DNA from: a virus
Length of the DNA: 38,677 bases
Virus record (IMG/VR): IMGVR_UViG_3300049437_000037
Reading direction: 5' to 3' (one strand)
Shown here: piece after piece, positions 222-38,677 of the stretch
Numbering within the stretch: the stretch's first letter is position 1
Layout of the letters: every line of letters begins with the position of its first letter
The notes under the pieces: generated by a model
Database searches by the model: none
What the model was told of the DNA's origin: nothing
What the model saw: only the letters and a program-made list of their open reading frames with translations
Made by a program: the position numbers and the translations under genes

Positions 222-1541
222 TCAGGAGCGGCGCGGCCAGTTGGGCGCGGCGAATACCATGCCGGGTTCACCGCCGGGCGCGCCATCGGGCGCTGCGCTG
301 GGAGCGGTCTGCAGGTCGGACGGGCCTCCAGCTGGACCGCCAGATGGGCCACCGGTGGCCGGGCCGTCCGTGGCAGCGTAATACGGGCGCATGAGGCGTT
401 CCAGGTCCTCTTCATCCGCCGGTGCGTAGATCCGGCGGGTGGTGTTGATGGACTGATGCCCCAGGACAGCCTGCACGTCGTCGAGCTGTGCGCCCCAGTG
501 TTTCAGCCCGCGCGCCGTGTAGTGGCGGAATAGGTGCGGCCGCGCGCCCGGCACCCCAACGCCGGCGCCGGTGCGGCGCACGATGTCATACAGCCCGCTG
601 GAGGTCAGCGGGGCGGGGCGGACGCTGCTCCGGATCCACAGGGCCTCGATGTCGGTCATGACGGCCGTCTCGACCAGGTGCGCGCGCTCGACCAGGTAGG
701 CCGCGATCGAGGCCTGGGCGCGCGGCGAAAAGCAGATCGAGCGGATGTAGCCGCCTTTCCCCAAGATGCTCGCCGACTGGGCGACGGCGTGCCCGCCCGG
801 ATTCTCGCGCCACACGTCGGCGACGGTCAGGCTCATCAGCTCGGCGCGCCGGGCAGCGGTTGAGAACAGGGCGTCGATCAGGGCGCGGTTGCGCAGGACA
901 GTCAGCCGGTCGAACGGGTGGCGGTCGTCGGGCAGGGGCACGGTGTACCAGTACTCGCGCAGCCGCTCGAAGCCGGCCGGAACGCGCACGATCTGCACGA
1001 TGCGGTGCTCTCGGCCGCGGGCGTTCTTCAGGCGCTCGATCTCGTGCACGACCTGCACGCCGGCGGGCGCGCGGCCCAGGGTTTCGAGGTACAGCAGGAA
1101 GCGACGCAGCGCGGCGGTGTACAGCCGGCGGGTGGTCCAGGCGTAGCCGTCGCCGGCCAGGTCGGCATCGAACAGGGCCATGCAGCCCGGCGCGAGCGGC
1201 CGGGCGTAGTGGTTGAAGCGGTTGATGGCGCAGCGGTAGGCGCGCAGAGTGGCATCGGATGCCCAGCTCGTCAGCTTGAGCCATAGGTCCACGTCTTGGG
1301 CGTCAACGTCTTGGGGTTGGATGGGTGTCTCCTGTCCACTGGGTGGGGGCCCACCGGGTGGGGGCCTGCCCGGAGGCGCGCCAGGTGGCGGAACCAGGTT
1401 CCTCACAGGTTTAGGCCGGCCAGCGACCGGTCGGCCTAAAGGGGTGCCGGCACTCACGGTTCCCGGATCCGCGGAACCCGGTTCCGGAATGCCCCCATCG
1501 CTCGCGTCGTGTACGGTCGATGCGTCCGTGATGTGGTGCAT
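222..1541 (-). CDS. int: Tyrosine recombinase / phage integrase
   Basis: 439-aa ORF. It has box I 'TAARRAELMSLTVADV' and a C-terminal catalytic region 'HLFRHYTARGL...VLGHQSINTTRRIYA' (R..HxxR..H..Y pattern). The N-terminus is Pro/Gly-rich and the C-terminal tail is low-complexity. Confidence 0.9.
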   Translation of the reverse strand: MHHITDASTVHDASDGGIPEPGSADPGTVSAGTPLGRPVAGRPKPVRNLVPPPGAPPGRPPPGGPPPSGQETPIQPQDVDAQDVDLWLKLTSWASDATLRAYRCAINRFNHYARPLAPGCMALFDADLAGDGYAWTTRRLYTAALRRFLLYLETLGRAPAGVQVVHEIERLKNARGREHRIVQIVRVPAGFERLREYWYTVPLPDDRHPFDRLTVLRNRALIDALFSTAARRAELMSLTVADVWRENPGGHAVAQSASILGKGGYIRSICFSPRAQASIAAYLVERAHLVETAVMTDIEALWIRSSVRPAPLTSSGLYDIVRRTGAGVGVPGARPHLFRHYTARGLKHWGAQLDDVQAVLGHQSINTTRRIYAPADEEDLERLMRPYYAATDGPATGGPSGGPAGGPSDLQTAPSAAPDGAPGGEPGMVFAAPNWPRRS

Positions 1542-5209: not shown

Positions 5210-5576
5210 TTTGGAGCCGATCCGGCGAATCGAGGTGCCCGAGCGCGGGCATGTGAGCGTGATCCCGTACACCTCGCACACCACGATCAGCGCGTGTGTG
5301 GACAACGGGGTGGGGTGGTGGACGACGGAGGTGTATCGCGTGGACGTGACCGACGAGCAGTTCGCCCAGCGGGTGGACAGTGCGATCGGGCATGCCAAGC
5401 TGGTGTTGGAGCTGGAGGCGTTGCGCCAGGTGCGCGACGTGTTTATGCGGCTGGTGGAAGCGCGGCTGAAGTGCAGCGTGGCGCTGGCCGACGAAGCGGC
5501 CATGCCGCCGATGGAGCAGTACCACCAGGCGTGGACGGAAGCGCTGAAGACCTACGTGGGCCTGCGGCGCGAATAG
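5199..5576 (+). CDS. Hypothetical protein (125 aa)
   Basis: GGAGGGGG lies upstream of the ATG at 5199. This is the internal start of ORF 5046..5576. Confidence 0.6.
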   Translation: MGVSLEPIRRIEVPERGHVSVIPYTSHTTISACVDNGVGWWTTEVYRVDVTDEQFAQRVDSAIGHAKLVLELEALRQVRDVFMRLVEARLKCSVALADEAAMPPMEQYHQAWTEALKTYVGLRRE

Positions 5577-5606
5577 GGCAACGAATAGGGCAACGAATCA
5601 ACGAAT
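5570..5606 (+). repeat. CGAAT-periodic element, copy A (CGAATAGGGCAA x2, then CGAATCAA, CGAAT)
   Basis: CGAAT occurs at 5570, 5582, 5594 and 5602 (spacings 12, 12, 8). The element ends 13 nt before the ATG at 5620. Confidence 0.7.
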
Positions 5607-5619
5607 GGGAGAAGTGAGC

Positions 5620-6033
5620 ATGGGACAGATCACACGAGTTACCTATGGCCGGCTGACGAGTTTTGGCCGGTATGAAAACGAGCGCATTGGCGCCGATGCA
5701 GCCGTGGCCGAGGGGGAATCGCCGGACCAGGCGCTGGCGACCGTAACGGCGTTCGTCGAGCAGAAGATCGCCGAGCGTGCTGGCGCGCGTCAGCAGGTCG
5801 AACAGTTGGATGACTCGGTCATCCGGCTGCAGAACCAGATGCATGACCTCGAATACGAAATCGGCAAGGCGAAGGAACGCTATGAGACCGTGGCGCGGTT
5901 CATGGCCAAGCATGGCCTGAAGATGCCCGGCTGGCTGGACGAGGTTGAGCAGGAGGCCATTTTGGACGAGGAAGACGAGGAAGACGAGGAAGACGGATCG
6001 ATCCCGGTCAGCGAGCCTGGGTCGCCGTTCTAG
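5620..6033 (+). CDS. Hypothetical coiled-coil protein with a poly-acidic C-terminal tail
   Basis: GGGAGA lies upstream of the ATG at 5620. The C-terminus reads 'DEEDEEDEEDGSIPVSEPGSPF'. Confidence 0.6.
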   Translation: MGQITRVTYGRLTSFGRYENERIGADAAVAEGESPDQALATVTAFVEQKIAERAGARQQVEQLDDSVIRLQNQMHDLEYEIGKAKERYETVARFMAKHGLKMPGWLDEVEQEAILDEEDEEDEEDGSIPVSEPGSPF

Positions 6034-7124: not shown

Positions 7125-7340
7125 ATGGAACACGTGATGGTGATTGAAGTGGCTGACATGAAGGTGGCATCCTTTACGCCGGAGGGCTGGAATGAGCCGC
7201 AGCAGGTACACCTGATCATCGGCGTGCCGCTCCCTGGGCTGAAGGCGCTGGTGGTGCGCATTCATAGCCGGGCGGCGCTGGATGAGATCGTGGCGGCGCT
7301 GCAATCGCATGGGGATGAGGTGTTTGGCCATGGAAGGTGA
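7125..7340 (+). CDS. Hypothetical small protein
   Basis: AGGAGA lies upstream of the ATG at 7125. 71 aa. Confidence 0.55.
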   Translation: MEHVMVIEVADMKVASFTPEGWNEPQQVHLIIGVPLPGLKALVVRIHSRAALDEIVAALQSHGDEVFGHGR

Positions 7341-8925
7341 ACTGTGGTTTCTGGATCAGATCGACGACAACCCGTATCAGCCCCGGCGAGAGTATGCCGG
7401 CATCGAGGCGCTGGCCGAAGACATCCGGGTGAATGGGCTGCTGCAACGGCCGCGCGGTCGCGTCCATCCGGCGGACCCCACGCGCTTGCAGTTGCAGTTC
7501 GGGCACCGGCGCCTGCGGGCGTTCCTGTGGTTGGCCGATCGGTATCCCGATGAGTCGCGTTGGCGGGCGCTGCCGATCGACGTCGACGACATCCCAGATC
7601 GCGTCATGTTCGACCGGGTGATCGCGGAGAACGCGCAGCGCTCCGACCTGAGTGACATCGAGCGGGCGCGCTCGATCCAGCAATACATTGCCGAGTTCCA
7701 CGTGAGCCAGGCCGAGGCGGCGACGGCGTTCAACCTGAAGACGCAGGCGGCCGTCAGCAACCTGTTGCGGCTGCTGAAACTGCCGGCGCCGGTGCAGGAC
7801 CTGGTGCACGAGGGTGTGTTGCCCCAGCGCCTGGCGCGCCAGCTCACGGTGTATGCCAAGGTCGACGAGGCGGGCGCGGTGGAGATGGCCCAGGCCGTGG
7901 CGGGAGCGGTGGATAACAAGGACGAGGCCTGGGAGAGCGAGGCGCGGGCGTTTGCGGATCAGCGGCGGGCGGGCTGGCTGCCGCAGGCTCCATGGAAGCC
8001 GGAGTGGCCCAAAGAGCCGATCCCCATGTCCGTGGAAATACAGGCCCAAGGGTTGGCGGAGATTCGGGCGTGTGTGGGATGCGAGTTCAACGTGGGCCAC
8101 CGTGGGAACGGGTCGTGCCTGTGGAAGCTGTGCTGGGGCCAGAAGTTGGCGATCAAGCTGAAGGATGAGATCGCGGCGGCGGGCAAGAAGCTGGGCGTGG
8201 CGGTGGCGCAGCCGGGTGAGAAGGTGTCGCGGATCTACTCGGGAGGGTGGCAGGAGAAGGACATGCTGCGGGCGGTCCTGAGACTCAAACCGGGCGCGCC
8301 GGGGCATGACAGCCTGCGCGTGTATGGGCTGGAGCGCGAGGCTTACCAGGAGCGGGACCTGTTCGGGAGCGGCTGGGTGGGCCTGGGCACGGTGAACATG
8401 CGGGCGGTCAATGCGGCGTTGCCGAAGAAGGCGGTCGAGAAGGCCGAGCGCAAGGCGGAAGAGCAGAAAGAGAGCTATCAGGATCGGGAAAAGCGCAAGG
8501 AACGGGAGCGCCAGGCGGCGAGAGCGGTGTGTGAGGCGCTGCTGGATCCGGTCGTGGCGCGCCTGGCGGCGCACATTCCGGTCGGTGCGGTCGACCTGCT
8601 GGCCGCCGTGCTGAAGGGGAATGCGTGGCGGGCGATGGACGACTTCGCCGGCACGTATGAGAAGACGCCGCCGGCGCGCCGGCGTGAGCTGCTCGTGCGG
8701 GTGCTGGTGTGTGAGTTGGGTGACTATGACAAGTGGAACCCGAAGGAGAAGGCCGTCCGCGACGGGGCGTGGAAGATCGCCGAGCTGCTCGGTGTGACGT
8801 TGCCGGAGGGGTGGGCCAACGAATCGGGAACGAATAAACGAATGAAGGCGGCGAAGGGCGCGAAGCCGGCGACTCAGGCGGTTGGGGCGGAGAGTTCGCA
8901 GGCCGGCGGGAAGAAGGGGAAGTGA
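7330..8925 (+). CDS. ParB/Spo0J-like N-terminal (ParB nuclease/CTPase fold) domain protein with a long unique C-terminal region
   Basis: 'NPYQPR...IEALAEDIRVNGLLQRP...LQFGHRRLRAF...IAENAQRSDLSDIERA' matches the ParB N-terminal boxes, including the GxRR motif. This is followed by an HTH-like segment 'SQAEAATAFNLKTQAAVSNLLRLLKLP'. A Cys cluster 'CVGCEFNVGHRGNGSCLWKLC' is also present. Confidence 0.8.
   Translation: MEGELWFLDQIDDNPYQPRREYAGIEALAEDIRVNGLLQRPRGRVHPADPTRLQLQFGHRRLRAFLWLADRYPDESRWRALPIDVDDIPDRVMFDRVIAENAQRSDLSDIERARSIQQYIAEFHVSQAEAATAFNLKTQAAVSNLLRLLKLPAPVQDLVHEGVLPQRLARQLTVYAKVDEAGAVEMAQAVAGAVDNKDEAWESEARAFADQRRAGWLPQAPWKPEWPKEPIPMSVEIQAQGLAEIRACVGCEFNVGHRGNGSCLWKLCWGQKLAIKLKDEIAAAGKKLGVAVAQPGEKVSRIYSGGWQEKDMLRAVLRLKPGAPGHDSLRVYGLEREAYQERDLFGSGWVGLGTVNMRAVNAALPKKAVEKAERKAEEQKESYQDREKRKERERQAARAVCEALLDPVVARLAAHIPVGAVDLLAAVLKGNAWRAMDDFAGTYEKTPPARRRELLVRVLVCELGDYDKWNPKEKAVRDGAWKIAELLGVTLPEGWANESGTNKRMKAAKGAKPATQAVGAESSQAGGKKGK
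8820..8843 (+). repeat. CGAAT-periodic element, copy B (inside the 3' end of the ParB-like CDS)
   Basis: ACGAATCGGGAACGAATAAACGAAT. It is identical to copy C except for a 1-nt indel. Confidence 0.7.
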
Positions 8926-10323: not shown

Positions 10324-10914
10324 ATGGAAAACGAACCGGGCAACGCACAGGTAGAGGTCGATCAAGGCGCCGGGCGAGACGCCGAGGCGCGCGCCGAGCG
10401 CGACGCCCAGCGCGCGGCCGGCATCGCGGAGGCGCTGCGCGATCTGGCCGCTGTAGTGGTCGAGATCGTCAAAGACCTGGTGTACATCGTGGTCCGGTTG
10501 CTGCCTTATGCGGTGCGCGGGGCGTGTGTGGCGCTGCCGGTACTCGCCCTGGCAACGTCATTTCAGCCGGTGTGGGATGCGTTCGGCAATGACGTGCCGG
10601 CGCTGTTGCCCACGGTGGTCTTTTTGCTGCTGCCGACCGTCTATGTGATCGAGCAGCGGCCGAGCTGGGGCGGCCTGGCCGGCGCGGGCGTGCTGATCCT
10701 GGTGATCGGCGCCGTGCTGCCTGCCGTGGGCATATTTCGGTATCTGCTGGTGGTGGCCGTCATCGCCGGCGTAGTGATCAGTAGTCTTTTTCAGAAACGT
10801 GAGGTCCAAGATGAAACAGGGTTCGAGCATTCTCATATGGTTGATCGCGATCGGTCTGTTGATCTTCACCGGGTTCCGGTCGATTCACCTGGTGCAGTCG
10901 ACGTTGCCGGGTGA
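10324..10914 (+). CDS. Polytopic membrane protein (about 4 TM helices)
   Basis: 196-aa ORF with several long hydrophobic helices. The last ~104 nt overlap the next gene and have poor GC3 in this frame. Confidence 0.55.
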   Translation: MENEPGNAQVEVDQGAGRDAEARAERDAQRAAGIAEALRDLAAVVVEIVKDLVYIVVRLLPYAVRGACVALPVLALATSFQPVWDAFGNDVPALLPTVVFLLLPTVYVIEQRPSWGGLAGAGVLILVIGAVLPAVGIFRYLLVVAVIAGVVISSLFQKREVQDETGFEHSHMVDRDRSVDLHRVPVDSPGAVDVAG

Positions 10915-11521
10915 CGCGCAGGTGCTGGGGTTCGCCGCGTTGGCGGCCCTGGACTTCGGCGTGCTTGGTTGGACGTTCTACGCCAATGGTGGCGCACGGG
11001 GGTCGCAGCGCATGGTCGCGATTCTGATGGTGATCGTGGACATGGCGGGCGTGGCCGCGGCGGTGATCGCCGACACGTTGCTGGTCTCGACCGGCGACCA
11101 GTATGGCAGCCTGGTGACGACGGTGGCGGCGTGGATCCTGCCCATTGTCGTGGTGGCGAATGTGGCGGCGACGATCTCCACCAAGTTGATGGATCCGGAC
11201 GTTCTATTGGCCAATGCCAAGCGCGAGGTATCGGACAGTCTGGAACTGGGCACCATCAATCACCTGCGCCAGAATCAGCAGCAGATCGCTGCGCGGGCAA
11301 TGCCGGAGGCCGCGCAGCATGTCGAGGATGAGCTGGTGAGCGGGTTCCGGGGCCGGATGATGGGCGCCAGAGGCAGCACGCCCGCGCCGGCCACGCTGAA
11401 TGGTCACCAGGGACCGGTTACTCTGGGCAAGGATGTTGATGGCCCGGAGACGGTCATCCGGGTGTCACGGCCCAAGCGCAGAGCGATTTCGGACAGTGTG
11501 GACGACGACCCAAACGCGTAA
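10811..11521 (+). CDS. Polytopic membrane protein (about 4 TM helices) with a soluble C-terminal domain
   Basis: GAGG lies upstream of the ATG at 10811. GC3 is high from the start. Four hydrophobic helices are followed by a polar tail. Confidence 0.65.
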   Translation: MKQGSSILIWLIAIGLLIFTGFRSIHLVQSTLPGDAQVLGFAALAALDFGVLGWTFYANGGARGSQRMVAILMVIVDMAGVAAAVIADTLLVSTGDQYGSLVTTVAAWILPIVVVANVAATISTKLMDPDVLLANAKREVSDSLELGTINHLRQNQQQIAARAMPEAAQHVEDELVSGFRGRMMGARGSTPAPATLNGHQGPVTLGKDVDGPETVIRVSRPKRRAISDSVDDDPNA

Positions 11522-11537
11522 CCGCCGAGCCGGTTCT

Positions 11538-11756
11538 GGTGTTGCCCACTATCGCGCCGGTCAAGGCTAGTGGGCAACACCAGGCTTTGCCGACTGCCGG
11601 CAGTGCCGGTGCCGGTGGTGCCACCGGTGGCAGTAGTGGGCAGAGCGGCCCGTCTGGCCAGGATCGCGCTGAGTCCCCGGCGACGAGTTTGCCCACTACA
11701 TCTGCCGTTGTGCCCACTATTGCCAGTAGTGGGCAAGCTGAACGGCTAGTGGGCAA
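11538..11756. repeat. Iteron cluster 1: seven copies of TAGTGGGCAA or its complement TTGCCCACTA
   Basis: Perfect copies at 11542-11551(-), 11568-11577(+), 11689-11698(-), 11727-11736(+) and 11747-11756(+). 9/10 copies at 11634-11643(+) and 11710-11719(-). A 14-bp perfect inverted repeat pairs 11538-11551 with 11568-11581. Confidence 0.9.
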
Positions 11757-12036
11757 AGGGGGTTGGCGCGAGTATCGGAACACAGGTGGCCGGCTACGGT
11801 GGGCGATTGACCGGGAGTGGATCAAAGCGGGCGGTAGGTGGGCGAAGCAGGGACATAACCGGCGCGACCTGCCGCCGATGACGGAGGATGAATATGAGTC
11901 GTGGAAACAGTCGCGCGCGGTCGCGCGGGCAGACGCGAGGGAGCGACGCAGCGGAGGCGGCTCCGGCGGAGGTGGCACCGGTGCCGGCACCAGTGCCAGA
12001 TCGGCTGCAGGAGTTCGCCAAGTGGCTGTTGGCTGA
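11539..12036 (+). CDS. Uncertain ORF; the 5' third coincides with the iteron array, while the region from about 11760 to 11950 looks coding
   Basis: GTG start with no SD. GC3 is low across the iteron part and high from about 11761 ('GWREYRNTGGRLRWAIDREWIK...'). The true start is unknown. Confidence 0.3.
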   Translation: MLPTIAPVKASGQHQALPTAGSAGAGGATGGSSGQSGPSGQDRAESPATSLPTTSAVVPTIASSGQAERLVGKGGWREYRNTGGRLRWAIDREWIKAGGRWAKQGHNRRDLPPMTEDEYESWKQSRAVARADARERRSGGGSGGGGTGAGTSARSAAGVRQVAVG

Positions 12037-12277
12037 TCAGCGCGTGATCGAGGTGTGGGGCGCGCAGGCCGCCCGCGTGGCGCGCTTCGAGTGTGTAGCT
12101 GACGAGGCCCAGTCTCTGGAACTGGATTCCGGGGATTGGTTCCTGGTGCGTGTGTCTGGTTTGCCCACTACACCAGAGCCGGGCGGCATCATCCGGTTCC
12201 GACGCCTGGCAGAGGTCCGGGCAGTGGTCCAGTCAGCGGCCACGACTACAGCAGATGTTGGGCCGGGGCCGGCGTAG
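11888..12277 (+). CDS. Hypothetical protein flanked by the two iteron clusters
   Basis: GGAGGA lies upstream of ATGAATATG. GC3 is high. 129 aa. Confidence 0.6.
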   Translation: MNMSRGNSRARSRGQTRGSDAAEAAPAEVAPVPAPVPDRLQEFAKWLLADQRVIEVWGAQAARVARFECVADEAQSLELDSGDWFLVRVSGLPTTPEPGGIIRFRRLAEVRAVVQSAATTTADVGPGPA

Positions 12278-12314
12278 TGGGCAAAGGGTAGTGGGCAAAC
12301 CCGCTTGCCCACTA
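12161..12314. repeat. Iteron cluster 2: four perfect copies of TAGTGGGCAA / TTGCCCACTA
   Basis: Copies at 12161-12170(-), 12275-12284(+), 12289-12298(+) and 12305-12314(-). The last two form an inverted pair with a 6-nt spacer. Confidence 0.9.
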
Positions 12315-12376
12315 TGCGAGCCGGAACCTGGTTCCCGAACCTGGTTCCGGCCTGTCAGTCCCGGCGCACAACGCCA

Positions 12377-12405
12377 TTGACAGATGAAAACGTCTGTTCT
12401 ACTAT
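12377..12405 (+). promoter_or_regulatory. Near-consensus sigma70-type promoter driving a leaderless transcript
   Basis: TTGACA (12377-12382), 17 nt, TACTAT (12400-12405). The predicted +1 at about 12412 abuts the ATG at 12413, and there is no SD. Confidence 0.65.
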
Positions 12406-12412
12406 CCACGTG

Positions 12413-12664
12413 ATGGCTTCACATGGTGGCGACGTCAAAAACGATGGTGATGACGCTGACGTAGCGGTGTTCGCTCTGGAGATACAGCCCGAGACGTTAC
12501 AGCAGAAGCAGGCTGCGGAGTTCGTGATCGCAACCCTGAAGAAGCTGGCGCTGATCGGGCTGAACCGGAACTGCCAATTGCAGATCGACTGCCAGAACAG
12601 GAGCGTGCAGATCCGGGTGCGCGACGTGTACGTTCAGGGTGCGACGCTGCCGCACGTCACCTGA
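12413..12664 (+). CDS. Hypothetical 83-aa protein (moron gene 1, apparently leaderless)
   Basis: Internal ATG of ORF 12305..12664, located 7 nt after the -10 box. The region is visibly more AT-rich than its surroundings. Confidence 0.55.
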   Translation: MASHGGDVKNDGDDADVAVFALEIQPETLQQKQAAEFVIATLKKLALIGLNRNCQLQIDCQNRSVQIRVRDVYVQGATLPHVT

Positions 12665-12754: not shown

Positions 12755-13585
12755 ATGCAAGCCGTCAAACGCACGTGGGGTAGGGGAGTCAGAGGTAAGT
12801 TTCTCGTTGGCTGCGCCACACTGTTAGCCGGCAGTTGCCTGCTCAGTATCCCTATCGCGATCTTTTCGCCCAAGTCAACCCCGCGATCGACACCGGTCAG
12901 CCAGGCGCAGGTCATCCAGGTGACCATTTTGGTCACTCAGCCCCCAACGGTCGTGCCTTCACCCACCGTTCCGCCTACACCCGTGCCGACTGCCACGCCG
13001 GAACCCACAGCCACGCCGGCGCCGACCGAGACGCCGATCGCGCCGGTGGTGATGGAAGGCTCAGGCAGCGATGTGCTCGACCTGCCGGTCTTGGGGTTGA
13101 GCATTGTGCGGATCCAGGGCAACCAGGGCGGGCAGTACTTCGGCGTGGAGAGTTTCGACGCGTCCGGCGAGCATATCGACCTGCTCGTCAACACGTCGGC
13201 CCCGTATAACGGCGTGCGGCCGCTGAACTTCACCGTGAAAGTCGCGCGCCGGCTGCAGGTCAAAGCGTCGGGAAGTTGGCGCATCGAGATCGTGCCGTTG
13301 AGGGAAGCTCGGCGCATGACGGTGCCGGGCGCGGTCGAAGGCGATGGCGACGACGTGGTGATCGTCGGCTCCTCGGATGGGCCGAAGCCTGACACGGCGA
13401 CCATCGTGGGCAACGACAACGCCCGGTACTTCGGCGTGTTCGCATGGGGAGATCAGTTTTACGACCTGCTGGTCAACACCAGCGATCCGTATAGTGGGAA
13501 GGTCATCCTGAAGGCGGGCATGGCGGTGTTCGAAGTTCGGGCCGAGGGGCCGTGGTCGATCACTGTTGCGGCGCGATCCGGTTAA
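12755..13585 (+). CDS. Secreted or membrane-anchored protein with a Pro/Thr-rich linker and two tandem homologous beta-rich domains (moron gene 2)
   Basis: GGAG lies upstream of the ATG. The N-terminal hydrophobic segment is 'FLVGCATLLAGSCLLSIPIAIF'. The linker is 'PPTVVPSPTVPPTPVPTATPEPTATPAPTETP'. Shared motifs between the two domains are 'YFGV...DLLVNTS.PY.G' and 'A.G.W.I'. Confidence 0.7.
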   Translation: MQAVKRTWGRGVRGKFLVGCATLLAGSCLLSIPIAIFSPKSTPRSTPVSQAQVIQVTILVTQPPTVVPSPTVPPTPVPTATPEPTATPAPTETPIAPVVMEGSGSDVLDLPVLGLSIVRIQGNQGGQYFGVESFDASGEHIDLLVNTSAPYNGVRPLNFTVKVARRLQVKASGSWRIEIVPLREARRMTVPGAVEGDGDDVVIVGSSDGPKPDTATIVGNDNARYFGVFAWGDQFYDLLVNTSDPYSGKVILKAGMAVFEVRAEGPWSITVAARSG

Positions 13586-38305: not shown

Positions 38306-38566
38306 ATGAAGGAAGTTGCTAGAACCTTTACGGAGACGCGAACGTATACCGAATGGGAGCCGGGCGACCTGGTCCGGCTGCCAGAGGGGCACGGTAACTG
38401 GGAGCATGGCCACGGCCTGCCGCCCGGAGTCTATCGCGTAGAGCGGTTCGAGCCGCCGATGTGCGCCGCCGATGATCCCATTGTGTTTGTCGAGGGCCAT
38501 CTGCATGGCCTCCCGTCGAGCTGCGTCGTAGCGCCGGAGTCGGCGCCGGCGCCTGCACCGCAATGA
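38306..38566 (+). CDS. Hypothetical protein (last rightward gene, convergent with int across the circular junction)
   Basis: 86-aa ORF. The stop lies inside the terminal repeat. Confidence 0.45.
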   Translation: MKEVARTFTETRTYTEWEPGDLVRLPEGHGNWEHGHGLPPGVYRVERFEPPMCAADDPIVFVEGHLHGLPSSCVVAPESAPAPAPQ

Positions 38567-38677
38567 ATGCACGATGCCCGGTCTGCCGGCGACGGAACTG
38601 CACGACCAAACACCGCGTGGCGCGGCTGGCGCGGTTGGATCGGCGTTCGCGGTCCTACGTGCGACACGGCGTGTCAC
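38551..38677. repeat. Right copy of the exact 127-bp terminal direct repeat
   Basis: Identical to 1-127. It contains the last 16 nt and stop codon of CDS 38306..38566. Confidence 0.95.

Follow-up and report, generated by a model that had tools for sequence, protein, structure and literature searches.

The DNA analysed here is the 38,677-bp virus record IMGVR_UViG_3300049437_000037 (the window), which derives from a temperate tailed phage of 65% GC. Between positions 11542 and 12314 it carries eleven copies of a short repeat, arranged in two clusters that bracket a pair of overlapping genes. We find that this array belongs to a conserved and undescribed module, shared by a temperate phage and related integrated elements, which comprises the repeats, a small basic protein (gpA) encoded by an overlooked gene, usually an acidic protein (gpB), and a protein with four predicted transmembrane segments (the 4-TM protein). 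The array is very probably a specific protein-binding array tied to this gpA module, and gpA is probably the protein that binds its repeat units, which we call boxes. The first-pass annotation of the window had proposed an iteron-type origin, a centromere or an operator array; the sequence-specific, protein-binding type of the array is upheld by our analysis, and of the three options the operator survives best.

A repeat array confined to one locus

We searched the window with the 10-mer TAGTGGGCAA, allowing up to one mismatch, and found 12 matches where 0.9 +/- 0.9 are expected; none of 100 shuffled sequences reached this number. Eleven of the 12 matches (nine exact and two with one mismatch, in both orientations) fall within the 773 bp of positions 11542-12314, and our recount therefore agrees with both the copy number and the excess over chance that were reported at first. 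The sole match outside the array, TCGTGGGCAA at 13404 with one mismatch, is the sort of match that chance gives. The 9-mer TAGTGGGCA is identical in all eleven copies, while position 10 is A in nine of them, G in one and C in one.

Six copies are on the plus strand and five on the minus strand of a region that is transcribed one way. Their start-to-start spacings (26, 66, 55, 21, 17, 20, 414, 114, 14 and 16 bp) are irregular and thus give no helical phasing of the copies. The repeat unit, an asymmetric 9-10-mer, is found as single copies, in direct pairs, and in inverted pairs of variable spacing (14-66 bp). One of the inverted pairs is part of a perfect inverted repeat, as had been noted, but its arms are 16 bp long (11536-11551 / 11568-11583) and not 14 bp; the tail-to-tail pair described at 12289-12314 is present, with a spacer of 6 bp between 12289-12298 and 12305-12314.

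A literature search for the motif returned primers and unrelated sequences only. A scan of IMG/VR with an exact two-copy DNA pattern yielded 29 loci, none of which (0/29) contained gpA or gpB; judging by their GC content and tandem periodicity, these are unrelated repeats.

gpA is a genuine gene that overlaps gpB

The open reading frame (ORF) at 11539-12036, which overlaps cluster 1 and was at first considered weak, proved to be composite. The GC content at codon positions shows no coding signal over 11522-11750, a signal in the frame of this ORF at about 11760-11900, and a signal in the frame of the following coding sequence, 11888-12277, past about 11940. The ORF can be aligned to its relatives only from about residue 70. 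Its 5' third is non-coding and its 3' two thirds, from a GTG at 11749, constitute a real conserved gene, gpA. Clustering of all ORFs from the related loci exposed the same situation, namely a second conserved family located 5' of gpB in supposedly intergenic space. When the first 27 codons of gpA from 13 loci are compared in pairs, the differences number 272 at codon position 1, 218 at position 2 and 868 at position 3, which indicates purifying selection on the gpA protein and a genuine coding gene. The consensus of the family, M-G-K-(R/K)-G-W-R-E-Y-R-R-T-G-G-x-L-R-W-A-I-D-R-E-W ... S-G-Q-W-R-K-R-G-H-H-R-R-D-L-P-P-x-T-E-x-x-Y-E-x-W-K, contains 18 invariant residues.

The coding sequence called at 11888-12277 is also a real conserved gene, gpB, but its start is most likely ATG 11894, which is located 6 nt past a GGAGG. 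The overlap of the two genes is 143 nt long in the window and 98 nt in locus L037; gpB is in the +1 frame throughout, and its Shine-Dalgarno sequence and start codon fall within the gpA segment P-P-M-T-E-x-x-Y(-E), which is conserved. Conserved gene overlaps of this length are unusual. The start codons given for both genes are predictions, and the promoter and terminator calls reported below are consensus matches. We also considered that the weak ORF and the following coding sequence might be a single frameshifted gene; however, homologues found with the fused query align to the gpB part only. For this reason, and because gpB has its own Shine-Dalgarno sequence, we regard gpA and gpB as separate overlapping genes. 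The overlap of 100-145 nt with a neighbouring gene, together with a start located within a box, explains why gpA is overlooked by standard gene callers: a set of 5.8 billion protein clusters contains a single entry for it, and 1.84 billion representative proteins yielded about 15 small homologues.

Across the family, gpA proteins have 80-95 amino acids (about 9-10 kDa), four or five Trp residues and a pI of 11.3-11.6. The homologues of gpB (27 proteins of 96-136 amino acids with 18 invariant residues) have a pI of 5.0-5.5. Searches of Pfam, PHROGs, NCBIfam, PADLOC and PDB sequences gave no match for gpA, gpB or the 4-TM protein, and a profile search of PDB sequences with gpA returned noise only. 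No match was obtained when gpA and gpB were compared by tblastn with INPHARED phages and PLSDB plasmids, or when IMG/VR was searched for loci with the single proteins gp10799 (the 4-TM protein of the window) and gpB.

An AlphaFold2 model of gpA, built on a 16-sequence alignment, has a pLDDT of 70 overall and consists of antiparallel strands at residues 6-11, 16-27 and 30-37, followed by a helix at residues 46-69 and a disordered tail. The part made of strands and helix reaches a pLDDT of 77-88, and the invariant Trp, Arg and Tyr residues are located on the strands. As modelled, gpA is a small basic beta-sheet protein to which no family is assigned. The corresponding model of gpB is of low confidence (pLDDT 55).

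The 4-TM protein gp10799 is 30.6% identical over 183 amino acids (E 3e-15) to the protein encoded at the same position in phage contig L064. Its similarity to the main 4-TM family of the related loci, F3, is weak (hhalign E 0.04), and the tie to that family is positional only. Outside their C-terminal ending, the 4-TM proteins encoded 5' of gpA can barely be aligned. The ending reads (D/A)PN(A/V/G) in the window (10799-11521), L064 (7108-7938), L037 (5549-6331) and L048 (7125-7826), and DPKA in the protein from L044 (6627-7388); it may be a short docking motif.

The array and gpA are conserved together in related loci

The relatives examined here are metagenome loci without assigned hosts, and our census of the module family is a lower bound. 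In 25 loci (267 kb) the 9-mer TAGTGGGCA has 106 exact copies, where about 2 are expected. At least 98 of the 106 are located between -1.7 and +0.9 kb of gpA; the remaining copies belong to loci in which gpA was missed by the pattern search but found by a hidden Markov model (HMM) search. The 9-mer is unchanged in about 20 related loci of 45-65% GC, though their gpA and gpB proteins are only 45-70% identical to those of the window. In flanks of up to 20 kb outside the neighborhood of the gene pair, host genes included, there are no copies of it. The motif is thus kept in relatives and confined to the module, and the possibility that it is a host-genome-wide repeat, which had been named as one way in which the initial finding could fail, is contradicted by relatives with flanking host DNA, which carry the motif only beside the module.

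The arrangement of the copies is conserved as well. One or two minus-strand copies are found in or past the 3' end of the upstream gene. These are followed by one or two plus-strand copies, one of which includes the gpA GTG start in frame (at least 11 loci), while one is within gpA, where it codes for S-S-G-Q. One or two minus-strand copies in the 3' part of gpB code for L-P-T-T, V-P-T-T or L-P-T-I, and a further plus-strand copy is found at the gpB stop codon. The LPTT, VPTT or LPTI peptide is kept in gpB homologues, often twice, matching the repeat copies in the DNA. Boxes are therefore contained in the coding sequences of three successive genes.

Gene order is conserved from an excisionase-family helix-turn-helix (HTH) protein (TIGR01764/HTH_17) through the 4-TM protein and gpA to, usually, gpB, and a gene for a Cas4-like PD-(D/E)XK nuclease is sometimes found between the HTH_17 and 4-TM genes. 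A 4-TM protein of 233-279 amino acids precedes gpA in nearly all related loci, while the genes 3' of gpB vary among loci. We found gpA in all related loci; gpB is undetectable in L064 and L066, both of which bear the array.

Most relatives are not complete phages but integrated elements with Tyr or Ser recombinases, often with defence cargo. They look like defence islands or satellites with a regulatory module that is also found in temperate phage. The cargo beside the module in L034, L037, L041 and L067 includes type III CRISPR RAMP and HerA genes, SNF2/NOV_C and UvrD helicases, CBASS SAVED proteins with a DncV-like cyclase, and an ImmA/HTH_3 pair. Island L060 is only about 7 kb long and has no recognisable replication gene. 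The viral contigs among the relatives are L044 and L064, and the order in L064 is 4-TM protein, boxes, gpA, boxes, an ORF of 116 amino acids, TerS and TerL. Both in the phage of the window and in phage contig L064, the module is located directly 5' of lysis/terminase genes. The fact that the module is kept across 45-65% GC, in groundwater and sediment metagenomes, and in phages as well as defence islands suggests that it probably serves a core function in the life cycle of its carriers, which are a poorly studied group of mobile elements.

Three relatives have an additional element directly 5' of the operon with the 4-TM gene, gpA and gpB. In L037 (4481-4681), L051 (5795-5977) and L048 (6891-7091) a near-consensus promoter is followed 120-150 nt on by a strong intrinsic-terminator hairpin. 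Rfam has no match for these promoter-hairpin elements, whose role could be that of an attenuator, a small RNA or a target of antitermination.

Box sequence covaries with gpA subfamily

Divergent gpA subfamilies are accompanied by altered boxes that retain the GGGCA part (TAGGGGGCA, TCGGGGGGCA, TTGTGGGCAA, TCTAGGGCAA) and have the same arrangement. In L065, where the second strand of gpA reads VYYARDRWY, there are eight copies of the box TAGGGGG(C/T)A. The gpA of L044, 37% identical overall and with KWFYPRDRWW in the second strand, is found with five copies of TCGGGGGGCA, four of them upstream and one in gpA at the S-S-G-Q position. In L066 the second strand reads GWIEF...RYAKRRRW and the box is TTGTGGGCAA (six copies), with the GTG start within a box and two copies just past the stop codon. 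Locus L068 has six copies of the box TCT(A/T)GGGCAA. A fixed GGGCA combined with a variable 5' half fits a reader of the boxes that is encoded by the module and not a universal host factor. These box variants and divergent gpA subfamilies offer a ready-made system for deciphering a protein-DNA recognition code, and possibly represent orthogonal regulator/operator pairs.

A subgroup of four loci (L048, L054, L058 and L043) has kept gpA and gpB intact but lost the local boxes, and LHDE replaces LPTT in its gpB. Three boxes are left, two of them as an inverted pair, TTGCCCACTA-6-TAGTGGGCAA. This pair ends 12 bp 5' of the -35 hexamer of a promoter, TTGACA-17-TACACT, that heads the operon for the HTH_17 protein, the 4-TM protein, gpA and gpB, which is an operator-type position.

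The window itself contains a distant element with some resemblance to the boxes. At 5570-5600, just 5' of a gene starting at 5620, there are two tandem copies of CGAATAGGGCAA followed by CGAATCAA and CGAATGGG. This element and the main box have GGGCAA in common; two copies of its 8-mer were reached in 3 of 100 shuffles. It may have a weak connection to gpA, since L068, a distant gpA relative, has the box TCTAGGGCAA.

Setting of the array in the phage genome

The ends of the window, 1-127 and 38551-38677, overlap exactly over 127 bp, which indicates that the genome was assembled as a circle and is complete at about 38.55 kb. We found no nucleotide relatives of the phage among 50,697 deposited phages (INPHARED; nucleotide BLAST with the region at 9-15 kb as the query). 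The array is located at the junction of the early, rightward genes and the lysis/packaging block (Table 1).

Table 1. Repeat copies, genes and other features of the window.
Feature	Position	Strand	Remarks
Tyrosine integrase	222-1541	-	
PrimPol with MarR-type winged helix	1592-3265	-	Domain search
ParB-like protein, HTH_ParB	7282-8925		Domain search
Membrane protein	10324-10914		
4-TM protein gp10799	10799-11521	+	240 amino acids; four N-terminal transmembrane segments by hydropathy; C-terminus ends DPNA
Leader with copies 1-6 (cluster 1)	11522-11748		Non-coding; codon-position GC without coding pattern
Copy 1	11542-11551	-	Exact; left arm of 16-bp inverted repeat
Copy 2	11568-11577	+	Exact; right arm of 16-bp inverted repeat
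Copy 3	11634-11643	+	9-mer core exact; position 10 is G
Copy 4	11689-11698	-	Exact
Copy 5	11710-11719	-	9-mer core exact; position 10 is C
Copy 6	11727-11736	+	Exact
Copy 7	11747-11756	+	Exact; holds gpA GTG start, 11749-11751
gpA	11749-12036	+	95 amino acids; basic, pI 11.3; 5 Trp; GTG start
Putative degenerate repeat TACGGTGGGCGA	11795-11806	+	Within gpA; GGTGGGCGA in common with 11834-11845
Degenerate repeat-like TAGGTGGGCGAA	11834-11845	+	Within gpA; relatives have an exact copy there, coding SSGQ
gpB	11894-12277	+	127 amino acids; acidic, pI 5.5; start ATG 11894
Copy 8	12161-12170	-	Exact; within gpB, codes Leu-Pro-Thr-Thr
Copy 9	12275-12284	+	Exact; its TAG is the gpB stop codon
Copy 10	12289-12298	+	Exact
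Copy 11	12305-12314	-	Exact; tail-to-tail with copy 10
Near-perfect palindrome GCCGGAACCTGGTTC / GAACCTGGTTCCGGC	12320-12351		15-bp arms; between cluster 2 and promoter
Near-consensus sigma-70-type promoter TTGACA-17-TACTAT	12377-12405	+	Consensus match
Holin, Rz-like protein, HNH, TerS, TerL, then structural genes	3' of promoter 12377-12405		

The promoter at 12377 is the only strong promoter in 2 kb. Cluster 2 is near it, as had been stated, but does not strictly abut it and ends 63 bp 5' of its -35 hexamer. An ATG at 12413 is located 7 nt past the -10 hexamer and is not preceded by a Shine-Dalgarno sequence; at this distance from the -10 hexamer, translation of the first gene in the lysis/HNH/terminase block probably starts from a leaderless mRNA. 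The palindrome between cluster 2 and this promoter can also be read as a 13-bp tandem, CCGGAACCTGGTT / CCCGAACCTGGTT. It may be a terminator-like hairpin (without a T-run) closing the gpA-gpB operon, a possibility suggested by the canonical terminator that follows gpB in L051, or the operator of another dimeric regulator.

GC skew is positive over the whole plus strand, including the region of the minus-strand PrimPol and integrase genes, and its sign never flips. Its mean is approximately halved past about 12 kb, i.e. at the array and the early/late boundary.

A possible operator-type complex around gpA and gpB

With a pI of 11.3, the product of the overlooked overlapping gene gpA is the best candidate for the protein that binds the boxes, and it was missing from the initial list of candidates. 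That list included the product of 11888-12277, i.e. gpB, which is not supported as the binder: it is acidic (pI 5.0-5.5) and undetectable in two relatives that bear the array.

We propose the following model, which is the best supported of those considered and in our judgement about as likely as not: the copies are gpA boxes, and a multi-site, operator-type complex formed on them brackets gpA and gpB, feeds back on gpA and gates the late genes. The Trp- and Arg-rich gpA would bind single boxes, whose core is TAGTGGGCA and whose invariant half is GGGCA, as a monomer-sized unit, contacting the box via its predicted three-stranded beta-sheet. The two clusters, together with the box within gpB, would then give rise to a higher-order complex around the gene pair. 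Since the gpA start codon is itself in a box, occupancy of this box could feed back on gpA synthesis in the manner of autoregulation; a binder's start codon within a box is a classical feedback-control arrangement. Formed at the end of the early operon, just 5' of the lysis/packaging promoter, the complex might act as a gate on the early-to-late transition, and the 4-TM protein and the acidic gpB would probably modulate gpA, for example by sequestration or antagonism. That the output of the array is transcriptional or translational control is a tentative proposal, and we hold it with less assurance than the binding of gpA to the boxes.

Several observations weigh against this model. Eleven boxes over 780 bp, many of them in coding sequence, exceed the needs of a simple operator. 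The boxes of cluster 2 are centred approximately 100-135 bp 5' of the inferred start of the 12377 promoter, too great a distance for RNA polymerase to be contacted directly, and a consensus scan detected no promoter directly 5' of gpA. In L067 gpA is present but an array is undetectable, and the association of array and gpA is therefore strong but not absolute. A Foldseek search of PDB and BFVD with the gpA model gave no match at E < 0.05 (the top match, PC4/Sub1, has an E value of 0.13 and a TM-score of about 0.3 and is not significant), and it did not retrieve the Int-arm and AP2 domains. Finally, a pure transcription-factor model leaves the constant 4-TM partner unexplained.

The constancy of this partner raises another possibility, albeit an improbable one: the array, gpA and the 4-TM protein, usually with gpB, could be a three-part system, shared by phage and islands, that tethers or gates the DNA of mobile elements at the membrane. 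If this were true, islands and phage would recognise each other's boxes, and the module would be a membrane-coupled switch or a means of interference between elements, with no counterpart in the known families of partition, origin or repressor systems.

Alternative explanations

An iteron-type origin with copy control, in which gpA, alone or together with gpB, would be the initiator, cluster 1 the origin and cluster 2 a site of control or handcuffing, is in our judgement unlikely. It would account for a presumed binder's gene that is bracketed by two clusters and has a box over its start codon, for the retention of the module in the approximately 7-kb island L060, which lacks a recognisable replication gene, and for the shift in the magnitude of GC skew near 12 kb; moreover, origin iterons, control iterons and autoregulation are joined in known systems (PMC6090056). 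However, GC profiles in 60-bp and 40-bp windows reveal no AT-rich unwinding element beside the arrays of the window and nine relatives. The lowest 40-bp GC near the arrays is 0.30-0.475 (0.35-0.475 without L044), and the only GC dip in the array region of the window is the 12377 promoter. In the relatives the boxes are almost wholly in coding sequence and the array has hardly any non-coding DNA. In addition, gpA with its 80-95 amino acids has no match to a Rep, winged-helix or lambda-O-like domain, GC skew keeps its sign, the window already encodes the replication protein PrimPol elsewhere, and the L048 subgroup has gpA and gpB but just the promoter-proximal box pair. The parallel once drawn with lambda ori, which is located within gene O, fails for the same want of an unwinding element and because the ORF part under cluster 1 is a non-coding leader.

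A centromere-like array or membrane tether seems slightly less probable again. Here the array-bound gpA would connect the DNA with the 4-TM protein, gpB acting as an adaptor, and serve segregation, the organisation of replication or exclusion. The only invariant partners of the array are indeed gpA and a polytopic membrane protein encoded directly upstream, and clusters of short repeats flanking the genes of their binders are typical of plasmid centromeres such as R1 parC and pB171 parC1/parC2. Against this, the module contains no ParA, ParM or TubZ-type NTPase (neither the scanned ORFs of the window nor the Pfam tables for the related loci gave a hit of the ParA/CbiA type), the elements are integrative, with Tyr or Ser recombinases, and have no obvious need for partition, and contact between gpA and the membrane protein would have to be assumed.

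Similarly unlikely is a packaging or late-gene site common to a helper phage and satellite-like islands, i.e. a pac/cos-type site or a RinA/LtrC-like target with gpA as the specificity factor. Such a site would suit the position of the module directly 5' of lysis/terminase genes in the window and in L064, where about 450 bp separate the downstream boxes from terS, and small, capsid-less integrative islands carry the same boxes as if satellites copied the signal of their helper. However, the distance to terS varies from about 2.9 kb in the window to 0.45 kb in L064, the module of L044 is followed by a HerA-like ATPase and an integrase instead of a terminase, and most islands have no packaging genes within 8-10 kb. 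A near-consensus promoter does not need an activator, and this explanation too leaves the 4-TM partner unaccounted for.

It is very unlikely that the boxes are bound by a protein of the host, for instance as a lineage-specific variant of the DnaA box. The opposite strand of the box, TTGCCCACT(A), resembles TTGTCCACA, which is the high-GC DnaA-box consensus and differs from the L066 variant TTGCCCACA at a single position; the 9-mer is, moreover, identical across elements of 45-65% GC, as sites for a host protein might be. However, the motif shifts with the gpA subfamily and is absent from the flanking host DNA of L034, L059 and L062, and TTGCCCACT deviates from the DnaA consensus TT(A/G)TCCACA at positions 4 and 9, which are reported to be critical.

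We assign a similarly slight probability to a role of the copies in RNA or single-stranded DNA, where opposed copies would pair into hairpins that mask the gpA start codon. The nested - - + + orientation of copies 5' of gpA, the window's perfect inverted repeat of 16 bp and the repeats of 14-15 bp found in L037 and L048 are compatible with such pairing. However, in 16 of 19 adjacent inverted pairs complementarity extends only 0-2 bp beyond the 9-mer and there is no systematic covariation; complementarity confined to the core indicates that hairpins are not the selected feature. One fixed stem sequence at all loci is a signature of sequence-specific recognition, direct-repeat pairs and lone copies exist too, and the array has no Rfam match.

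Least probable of all are the two binders named first by the first-pass annotation, the ParB-like protein (with the boxes as its parS) and the winged helix of PrimPol (with the boxes as its origin), since, although both have DNA-binding domains (HTH_ParB and a MarR-type winged helix) and ParB-like genes occur in L037-L041 and L044, PrimPol is encoded in no related array-bearing locus, ParB is absent within +/-8-10 kb in L034, L059, L060, L064 and L067, the contigs of the closest relatives of the window ParB (L030-L032, at most 43% identical) have neither gpA nor the motif, and the box is asymmetric where a canonical parS is palindromic (about 16 bp). Two of these contigs have palindromic repeats of their own in the gene just 3' of parB: GATCATGATCATGATC in L030 (6633-6648), and three copies of TGATCGATCA in L032 (7177-7214), where the gene has a DnaA_N-like domain. 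They are candidate parS or origin sites of those elements and have nothing to do with the TAGTGGGCA boxes.

Comparison with known systems

The array resembles the operators and stoperators of the mycobacteriophage L5/cluster A repressors in that a short asymmetric site (13 bp in L5, 9-10 bp here) is present in many copies. Sites of the L5 type are bound by a monomer, are found in promoters and in transcribed regions, and evolve in specificity together with the protein (PMC9283540; PMC6550527). However, L5 stoperators are distributed genome-wide, are intergenic and have orientations that follow transcription, while the boxes described here are confined to one 0.8-kb locus, occur in both orientations and are often within genes. 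The repressor of L5 (about 23 kDa) is of the HTH type and has two domains; gpA, of about 9-10 kDa, is predicted to consist of a beta-sheet and a helix, and comparison with HTH models gave no match.

In the iteron replicons of P1 (incC-repA-incA) and F (ori2-repE-incC), sets of repeats flank an autoregulated initiator gene and extra repeats titrate or handcuff, and the flanking of a binder gene by repeat sets is the likeness to our array. The same logic is seen at ori2 of Vibrio cholerae, where binding of RctB at its own gene is autoregulatory and additional repeats titrate or handcuff (PMC6090056). Iterons differ from the boxes in that they are 11-22 bp long and accompanied by an AT-rich unwinding element and DnaA boxes, and in that their initiators, of 30-75 kDa, contain winged-helix domains; our searches found none of these features.

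The alpha protein of phage P4 is a primase-helicase whose C-terminal winged helix binds octamers, TGTTCACC, that are present in both orientations in two clusters (ori and crr). Boxes in both orientations and two separated clusters are shared with our array, and this comparison underlies the earlier suggestion of PrimPol as the binder. However, the array accompanies gpA and not a primase, and all relatives lack PrimPol.

In the plasmid centromere systems R1 parC/ParR, pB171 parC1-parC2/ParB and the omega heptads of pSM19035, repeats of 6-11 bp surround the promoter, or lie on either side, of the operon of a small, autoregulated binder. Direct and inverted short repeats around or flanking the operon of a small binder are what our array has in common with them. 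Their binders are ribbon-helix-helix proteins whose partner is a ParA or ParM NTPase, while the module described here lacks an NTPase, has a membrane protein as the partner and encodes a candidate binder of another predicted fold. No ribbon-helix-helix Pfam family (ParR, omega, Arc/MetJ) matches gpA, whose model has three strands and one long helix where proteins of that fold form dimers and have one N-terminal strand and two helices.

The arm-binding domain of lambda Int, like that of Tn916 Int and like AP2/ERF domains, reads asymmetric sites of about 10 bp with a three-stranded beta-sheet packed on a helix. The gpA model has the same order of secondary structures, and the arm sites of lambda attP, like the boxes, form two clusters in both orientations. 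In contrast to attP, the array is separated from the integrase by 10 kb and encloses 400 bp of genes in place of a crossover core, and its relatives use Tyr or Ser recombinases.

The array departs from at least one defining feature of each of the L5, iteron, P4 and plasmid-centromere systems. Small proteins that bind arrays of short boxes are well known, and the principle is not new. What is new are protein families without relatives in Pfam, PHROGs, NCBIfam, PADLOC or PDB, the sequence of the box, the hidden gpA gene, the placement of boxes in three successive coding sequences (for example as Leu-Pro-Thr-Thr in gpB), and the constant pairing with a polytopic membrane protein. We conclude that the module is a new protein/box family with an unusual, compact arrangement of overlapping genes and a membrane-protein partner.

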